The notes beneath the pieces are model-generated. The model was given only the letters and a program-made list of their open reading frames with translations. It was not told where the DNA came from and did no database searches. From NCBI RefSeq assembly GCF_057098645.1, contig NZ_CM169472.1: 64,000 nucleotides of DNA; one strand, given 5' to 3'. The translations under genes and the position numbers were made by a program. This document shows positions 46,904 through 46,921 of the stretch, in pieces. Numbering within the stretch: position 1 is the stretch's first letter; the number at the start of each line of letters is the position of its first letter.

Positions 46904-46921
46904 ATGTTCGATAACGAACAT
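46904..46921. promoter_or_regulatory. GlpR operator (perfect 18-bp palindrome ATGTTCGATAACGAACAT) in the glpD promoter
   Basis: Perfect dyad located 34 bp upstream of the glpD ATG, matching the known GlpR operator half-site TGTTCGAT; a weaker TTTAACGAAAG repeat follows. Confidence 0.75.

Follow-up and report, generated by a model that had tools for sequence, protein, structure and literature searches.

The dyad at 46904-46921 upstream of Escherichia coli glpD as the probable core of the GlpR operator O_D1

The 18-bp dyad at positions 46904-46921 is, on the evidence of its sequence, very probably (about 0.94) the core of O_D1, the promoter-proximal GlpR operator of E. coli glpD. This operator is already known and belongs to textbook regulation. 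What sets the dyad apart in the window, by which we mean the whole 64,000-nucleotide stretch of DNA that was analysed, is its specific sequence and not its symmetry. A sequence-only reading had named it a GlpR operator of glpD, and several observations bear this out: it is part of the best GlpR match in the 64 kb and ranks first with a matrix built from sites outside glpD; it covers a conserved -10 element and the predicted transcription start; the window also holds the gene for an intact GlpR equivalog; and the operator core is invariant in an alignment of 77 sequences. The call rests on a known motif found at the right promoter, and its value is mainly that of quality control.

The glpD locus in the window

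A 1-kb query around the dyad found matches in 5,425 of the 5,426 complete E. coli genomes, with 100% identity to O145:H28 strains. The gene order is rtcR, glpR, glpG and glpE, the three glp genes lying on the minus strand, followed by the divergent glpD on the plus strand. GlpD is encoded at 46955-48460, as annotated by RefSeq in the identical record, and matches the NCBIfam equivalog model NF008899 with 837 bits. Its annotated start is the ATG at 46955; the GTG at 46940 given in the list of open reading frames is merely the earliest possible start of that frame. The gene for the cognate repressor, glpR (44789-45547, minus strand), lies 1.4 kb from the operator. It is annotated in the matching record and encodes an intact DeoR-family protein of 252 residues that matches the equivalog model NF008154 over its full length (1-252) with 552.8 bits (cutoff 331). 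The identities of GlpE and GlpG were likewise confirmed by NCBIfam equivalog models.

The glpE-glpD intergenic region (46766-46954) has zero differences from that of K-12 MG1655, so that findings made in K-12 transfer to this DNA base for base. The glpR gene is intact here, whereas the K-12 MG1655 reference record carries it as a pseudogene (849-1606 of the compared locus), a state that one paper ascribes to a single-base insertion absent from some MG1655 stocks.

Other features of the window were recorded in passing. Between glpD and glgP lies a four-gene cluster on the minus strand (48674-52280), which encodes three hypothetical proteins without a Pfam match and, as the fourth product, a 502-residue protein of the PstS-family/PBP_like_2 type; the K-12 annotation places yzgL directly downstream of glpD. 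Two toxin-antitoxin-like pairs are annotated in the matching O145:H28 record, at 27594-28225 and 39958-40712, and they comprise AbrB/MazE with PemK/MazF and a DUF1778 protein with a GNAT acetyltransferase.

Symmetry, sequence match and conservation of the dyad

On the plus strand, positions 46904-46921 read ATGTTCGATAACGAACAT (18 bp), the reverse complement of which is ATGTTCGTTATCGAACAT. The dyad is centred at 46912.5, so that 42.5 bp separate its centre from the glpD ATG downstream, which agrees with the earlier estimate of about 40 bp. It had also been described as a perfect 18-bp palindrome, and this does not hold: pairs 1-7 and 9 match, and pair 8 sets A46911 against A46914 (A/A), for a total of eight out of nine pairs. 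The architecture is that of two perfect 7-bp arms flanking GATAAC. Measured against first-order Markov simulations, such symmetry is at chance level in the window, where eight ungapped 18-mers have at least 8/9 pairs and 9.5 ± 3.0 are expected; a search of the 64 kb for perfect ungapped 18-mer dyads found none. Because equally good dyads arise here at the chance rate, this one is a poor positive control for the detection of dyads by eye, the use to which the sequence-only reading had put it. It was familiarity with the GlpR motif, and not the symmetry, that allowed the dyad to be recognised.

The match to that motif is of a different order. The dyad is enclosed by a 20-bp unstranded site at 46903-46922, TATGTTCGATAACGAACATT, referred to below as operator 1. 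It agrees at 20 out of 20 positions with WATGTTCGWTAWCGAACATW, which we take to be the palindromic GlpR consensus, a 20-bp inverted repeat of a 10-bp half-site that stems from the work of the Larson laboratory. The runner-up anywhere in the window reaches 16, a comparison that is partly circular in that the consensus was historically derived in part from this very glpD site. The 18-bp pattern ATGTTCGWTAWCGAACAT, with W at two inner positions, has one exact match, the dyad itself, with 0 mismatches, and 0.07 matches with at most three mismatches are expected by chance in the window. A further comparison used the RegulonDB GlpR consensus AAATGATCAATAACGAACAT, as printed in the TOMTOM table of the Reg-Seq supplement (eLife 2020). 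Positions 46902-46921 agree with it at 17 out of 20 positions, and at this limit of three mismatches they are the sole match in the window, with 0.01 expected. Finally, a palindromised matrix was built exclusively from the seven best sites in the K-12 regulatory DNA of glpFK and of glpT-glpA (glpTQ/glpACB). These seven sites were chosen by their similarity to the consensus WATGTTCGWTAWCGAACATW; two of them are RegulonDB glpTQ GlpR sites listed in Supplementary Table 1 of another paper. With this matrix, 46903-46922 comes first among 63,981 positions and scores 23.2 bits.

The tandem arrangement that had been claimed for the glpD operators is present as well. Operator 1 is directly abutted by a second, weaker and likewise unstranded site, operator 2 (O_D2), at 46923-46942, which reads TATGAGCTTTAACGAAAGTG and lies in exact 20-bp phase with it. 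Operator 2 matches WATGTTCGWTAWCGAACATW at 14 out of 20 positions, a score reached by just 20 positions in the window, and the two sites together sum to 34 out of 40, the highest total of any phased pair in the window; the best unrelated pair reaches 24. A phasing of 20 or 40 bp is also seen among the glpFK and glpT-glpA matches.

A scan of species-representative genomes yielded 80 glpD loci from Escherichia, Salmonella, Citrobacter, Klebsiella, Enterobacter, Kosakonia, Kluyvera, Raoultella and other Enterobacteriaceae, and the resulting alignment holds 77 sequences including the window. Throughout this alignment, operator 1 is invariant at T46905, C46909, G46910, T46912, A46913, C46915, G46916, A46917 and C46919-T46922 (pattern T..CG.TA.CGA.CATT), and changes are confined to positions at which the consensus is degenerate. 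Position 46914, where the dyad is mismatched, has A in 40 of the sequences and T in the other 37. The A/A clash is therefore tolerated variation rather than damage, since it falls on a W position of the consensus and its column is split in this manner. Operator 2 is invariant at T46925, G46926, C46929 and A46934-G46940 (TG..C....ACGAAAG).

The two arms of operator 1 have fared differently. Position 46907 is A in 50 of the 77 sequences and 46908 is G in 49, which turns the left arm into ATGAGCG, a form that resembles the left arm of operator 2, while the right arm, CGAACAT, is unchanged where the left arm reads so. The left arm ATGTTCG is limited to Escherichia, Salmonella and some Citrobacter, and most other genera have ATGAGCG. 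With a left arm that varies and a right arm that is fixed, the near-perfect palindrome is lineage-specific, and the complementarity of the arms is not conserved. Among 5,424 E. coli genomes, 3,496 share the identical sequence over 46880-46965, and the sampled variants alter 46882, 46924 or 46928 and leave operator 1 untouched. In these close relatives, good conservation extends over the whole promoter region of about 110 bp (about 46836-46944), so it is not specific to the operators.

The glpD promoter, proposed repression and alternative explanations

A simple sigma-70 promoter scan of 46700-47000 found no promoter, because the -35 element is weak, and the glpD promoter was placed instead by a conserved putative extended -10 element, TGcTAATAT, at 46897-46905 on the plus strand. 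Its T46897, G46898, C46899, T46900, A46901 and T46905 are invariant in the 77 sequences (pattern TGnTAnnnT). This element would put the transcription start at about 46912-46913, at the centre of the dyad, and operator 1 overlaps both the invariant extended -10 and this predicted start. Further upstream, between the divergent glpE and glpD, an unstranded CRP-like site at 46842-46857 (TGTTA-N6-TCACT) scores 14/22 against the CRP consensus, with its centre some 63 bp upstream from the predicted glpD start. Both of its half-sites are at least 95% conserved and its 6-bp spacer varies; from its sequence, it may be assigned to CRP.

Three further sequences in this region were noted. The stretch at 46865-46879, GTTTTTTCAATGTTA, which shares bases with the -35 region, resembles the ArcA box GTTAATTAAATGTTA (3 mismatches), with weak statistics (5 matches in the window against 1.4 expected). 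The hexamer TGTTAC at 46875-46880 is invariant across genera. At 46844-46852, TTATACATA is one mismatch away from TTATNCACA, which we take to be the DnaA-box consensus.

The two operators fit the reported picture of this promoter in K-12. Ye and Larson (1988, J Bacteriol 170:4209) and Yang and Larson (1996, J Bacteriol 178:7090) reportedly obtained GlpR footprints at the glpD operators, and in both studies the protection is said to be relieved by sn-glycerol 3-phosphate; the abstract of the 1996 study reportedly describes tandem 20-bp sites that extend over the -10 and roughly 30 bases at the start of the transcript. According to published work, GlpR controls four operons, glpD among them, each of which has 4-8 sites, and its repression is lifted when it binds glycerol 3-phosphate; at glpFK, it is a GlpR operator over the -10 that mainly controls transcription. 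In the mechanism that we propose, GlpR made from the divergent glpEGR operon would recognise 46903-46922 through the inverted half-sites TATGTTCGAT and AACGAACATT and would also occupy the adjacent, weaker site at 46923-46942. Together, operators 1 and 2 would span the DNA from the -10 through the transcription start to about base 30 of the transcript, so that bound GlpR would exclude or trap RNA polymerase until the inducer, sn-glycerol 3-phosphate, releases it and glpD can be transcribed. According to claims in the literature, GlpR may bind the tandem sites cooperatively and may loop to operators inside glpD. Consensus, phased-pair and half-site scans of glpD (46955-48460) located no such internal operators; the best score was 13/20, and no phased pair was prominent.

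Three other explanations of the dyad were weighed. That another regulator mainly binds it, such as a DeoR-family paralog (DeoR, AgaR, SrlR, YgbI or YciT), CRP or DnaA, is highly improbable. GlpR is clearly similar in protein sequence to other DeoR-family repressors, 46902-46923 scores 13/22 against the CRP consensus, and weak DnaA binding has been seen upstream of glpD in starvation (ChIP-seq, 2026 paper); yet the dyad ranks first with a matrix taken from other GlpR-regulated promoters, matches the RegulonDB GlpR consensus and belongs to a gene of the glp regulon, while CRP has a better-placed, conserved site at 46842-46857 and no DnaA box lies within the dyad.

A role in structure, as an RNA hairpin in the 5' leader of glpD or as a DNA cruciform, has a probability close to nil. 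The RNA would indeed fold at 46904-46921 into a 7-bp stem with a 4-nt loop, and the whole of 46900-46960 gives -11.4 kcal/mol (z = -2.1). The left arm, however, overlaps the conserved -10 and would thus be expected upstream of the start and absent from the mRNA. Moreover, 50 of the 77 sequences pair a left ATGAGCG with a right CGAACAT, so that two of the seven stem pairs are lost with no compensatory change. The RNA hairpin was rejected on these two grounds, the overlap with the -10 and the absence of compensatory changes in the 77 sequences. As for a functionless chance palindrome, the count of 18-bp dyads with at least 8/9 pairs (8 observed, 9.5 expected) is just what that idea predicts, but it says nothing of a position in the promoter of a GlpR-controlled gene, a phased partner site and a core that is invariant across genera; the idea was rejected on motif statistics and position, and its probability is practically zero.

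A candidate site upstream of glpR and comparison with known operators

The second-best GlpR match in the window, at 16/20, is AATGCGCGAAAACGAAAATA at 45565-45584 on the minus strand. With the matrix built from sites outside glpD, it ranks 2 of 63,981 positions, at 17.9 bits. The final six codons of glpG and part of its stop codon fall within this match, which is 18-37 bp upstream of the ATG of glpR. In 65 of 70 Enterobacteriaceae sequences, the equivalent position at the end of glpG reaches a score of 15-18/20, most commonly in the form AATGTGCGAAAACGAACATA. At the two Arg codons within the site, 87% and 94% of sequences use the rare CGA, as against nine other conserved Arg columns of glpG in which CGC or CGT prevails at 43-87%; this fixation of CGA suggests that the nucleotide sequence itself is constrained. 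According to the Larson laboratory, GlpR does not regulate the main promoter of glpEGR, and glpR is expressed from promoters within glpG. We tentatively suggest, as a possibility that is more doubtful than probable, that 45565-45584 is a functional GlpR operator that could place glpR under negative autoregulation, for instance if bound GlpR blocked transcripts coming from the intragenic glpG promoters. No description of this GlpR-like site upstream of glpR was found in the literature accessible to our search.

The closest comparison for the dyad is with O_D1 and O_D2 of E. coli K-12 glpD, which are at the same locus, within an intergenic region that is 100% identical and with an operator that shows no difference. 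The hosts differ: the present strain is O145:H28-like with an intact glpR, and the MG1655 record holds a glpR pseudogene. The operators of glpFK (O1-O4) and of glpTQ/glpACB share with glpD a common half-site pattern of the ATGnnCG / CGnnCAT type and, as at glpD, form tandem arrays with 20- or 40-bp phasing. These sites score 13-15/20 against the consensus, in contrast to 20/20 at operator 1 of glpD, and they are interleaved with CRP sites. Outside the glp regulon, the lac system offers a similar layout, in which a near-palindromic main operator, O1, lies over the start and auxiliary operators lie in the downstream coding region, as does O2 inside lacZ; the title of the paper by Yang & Larson (1996) opens with the words 'Action at a distance'. 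The lac repressor belongs to the LacI/GalR family and GlpR to the DeoR family, and, unlike the lac repressor, GlpR uses directly abutting tandem 20-bp sites.
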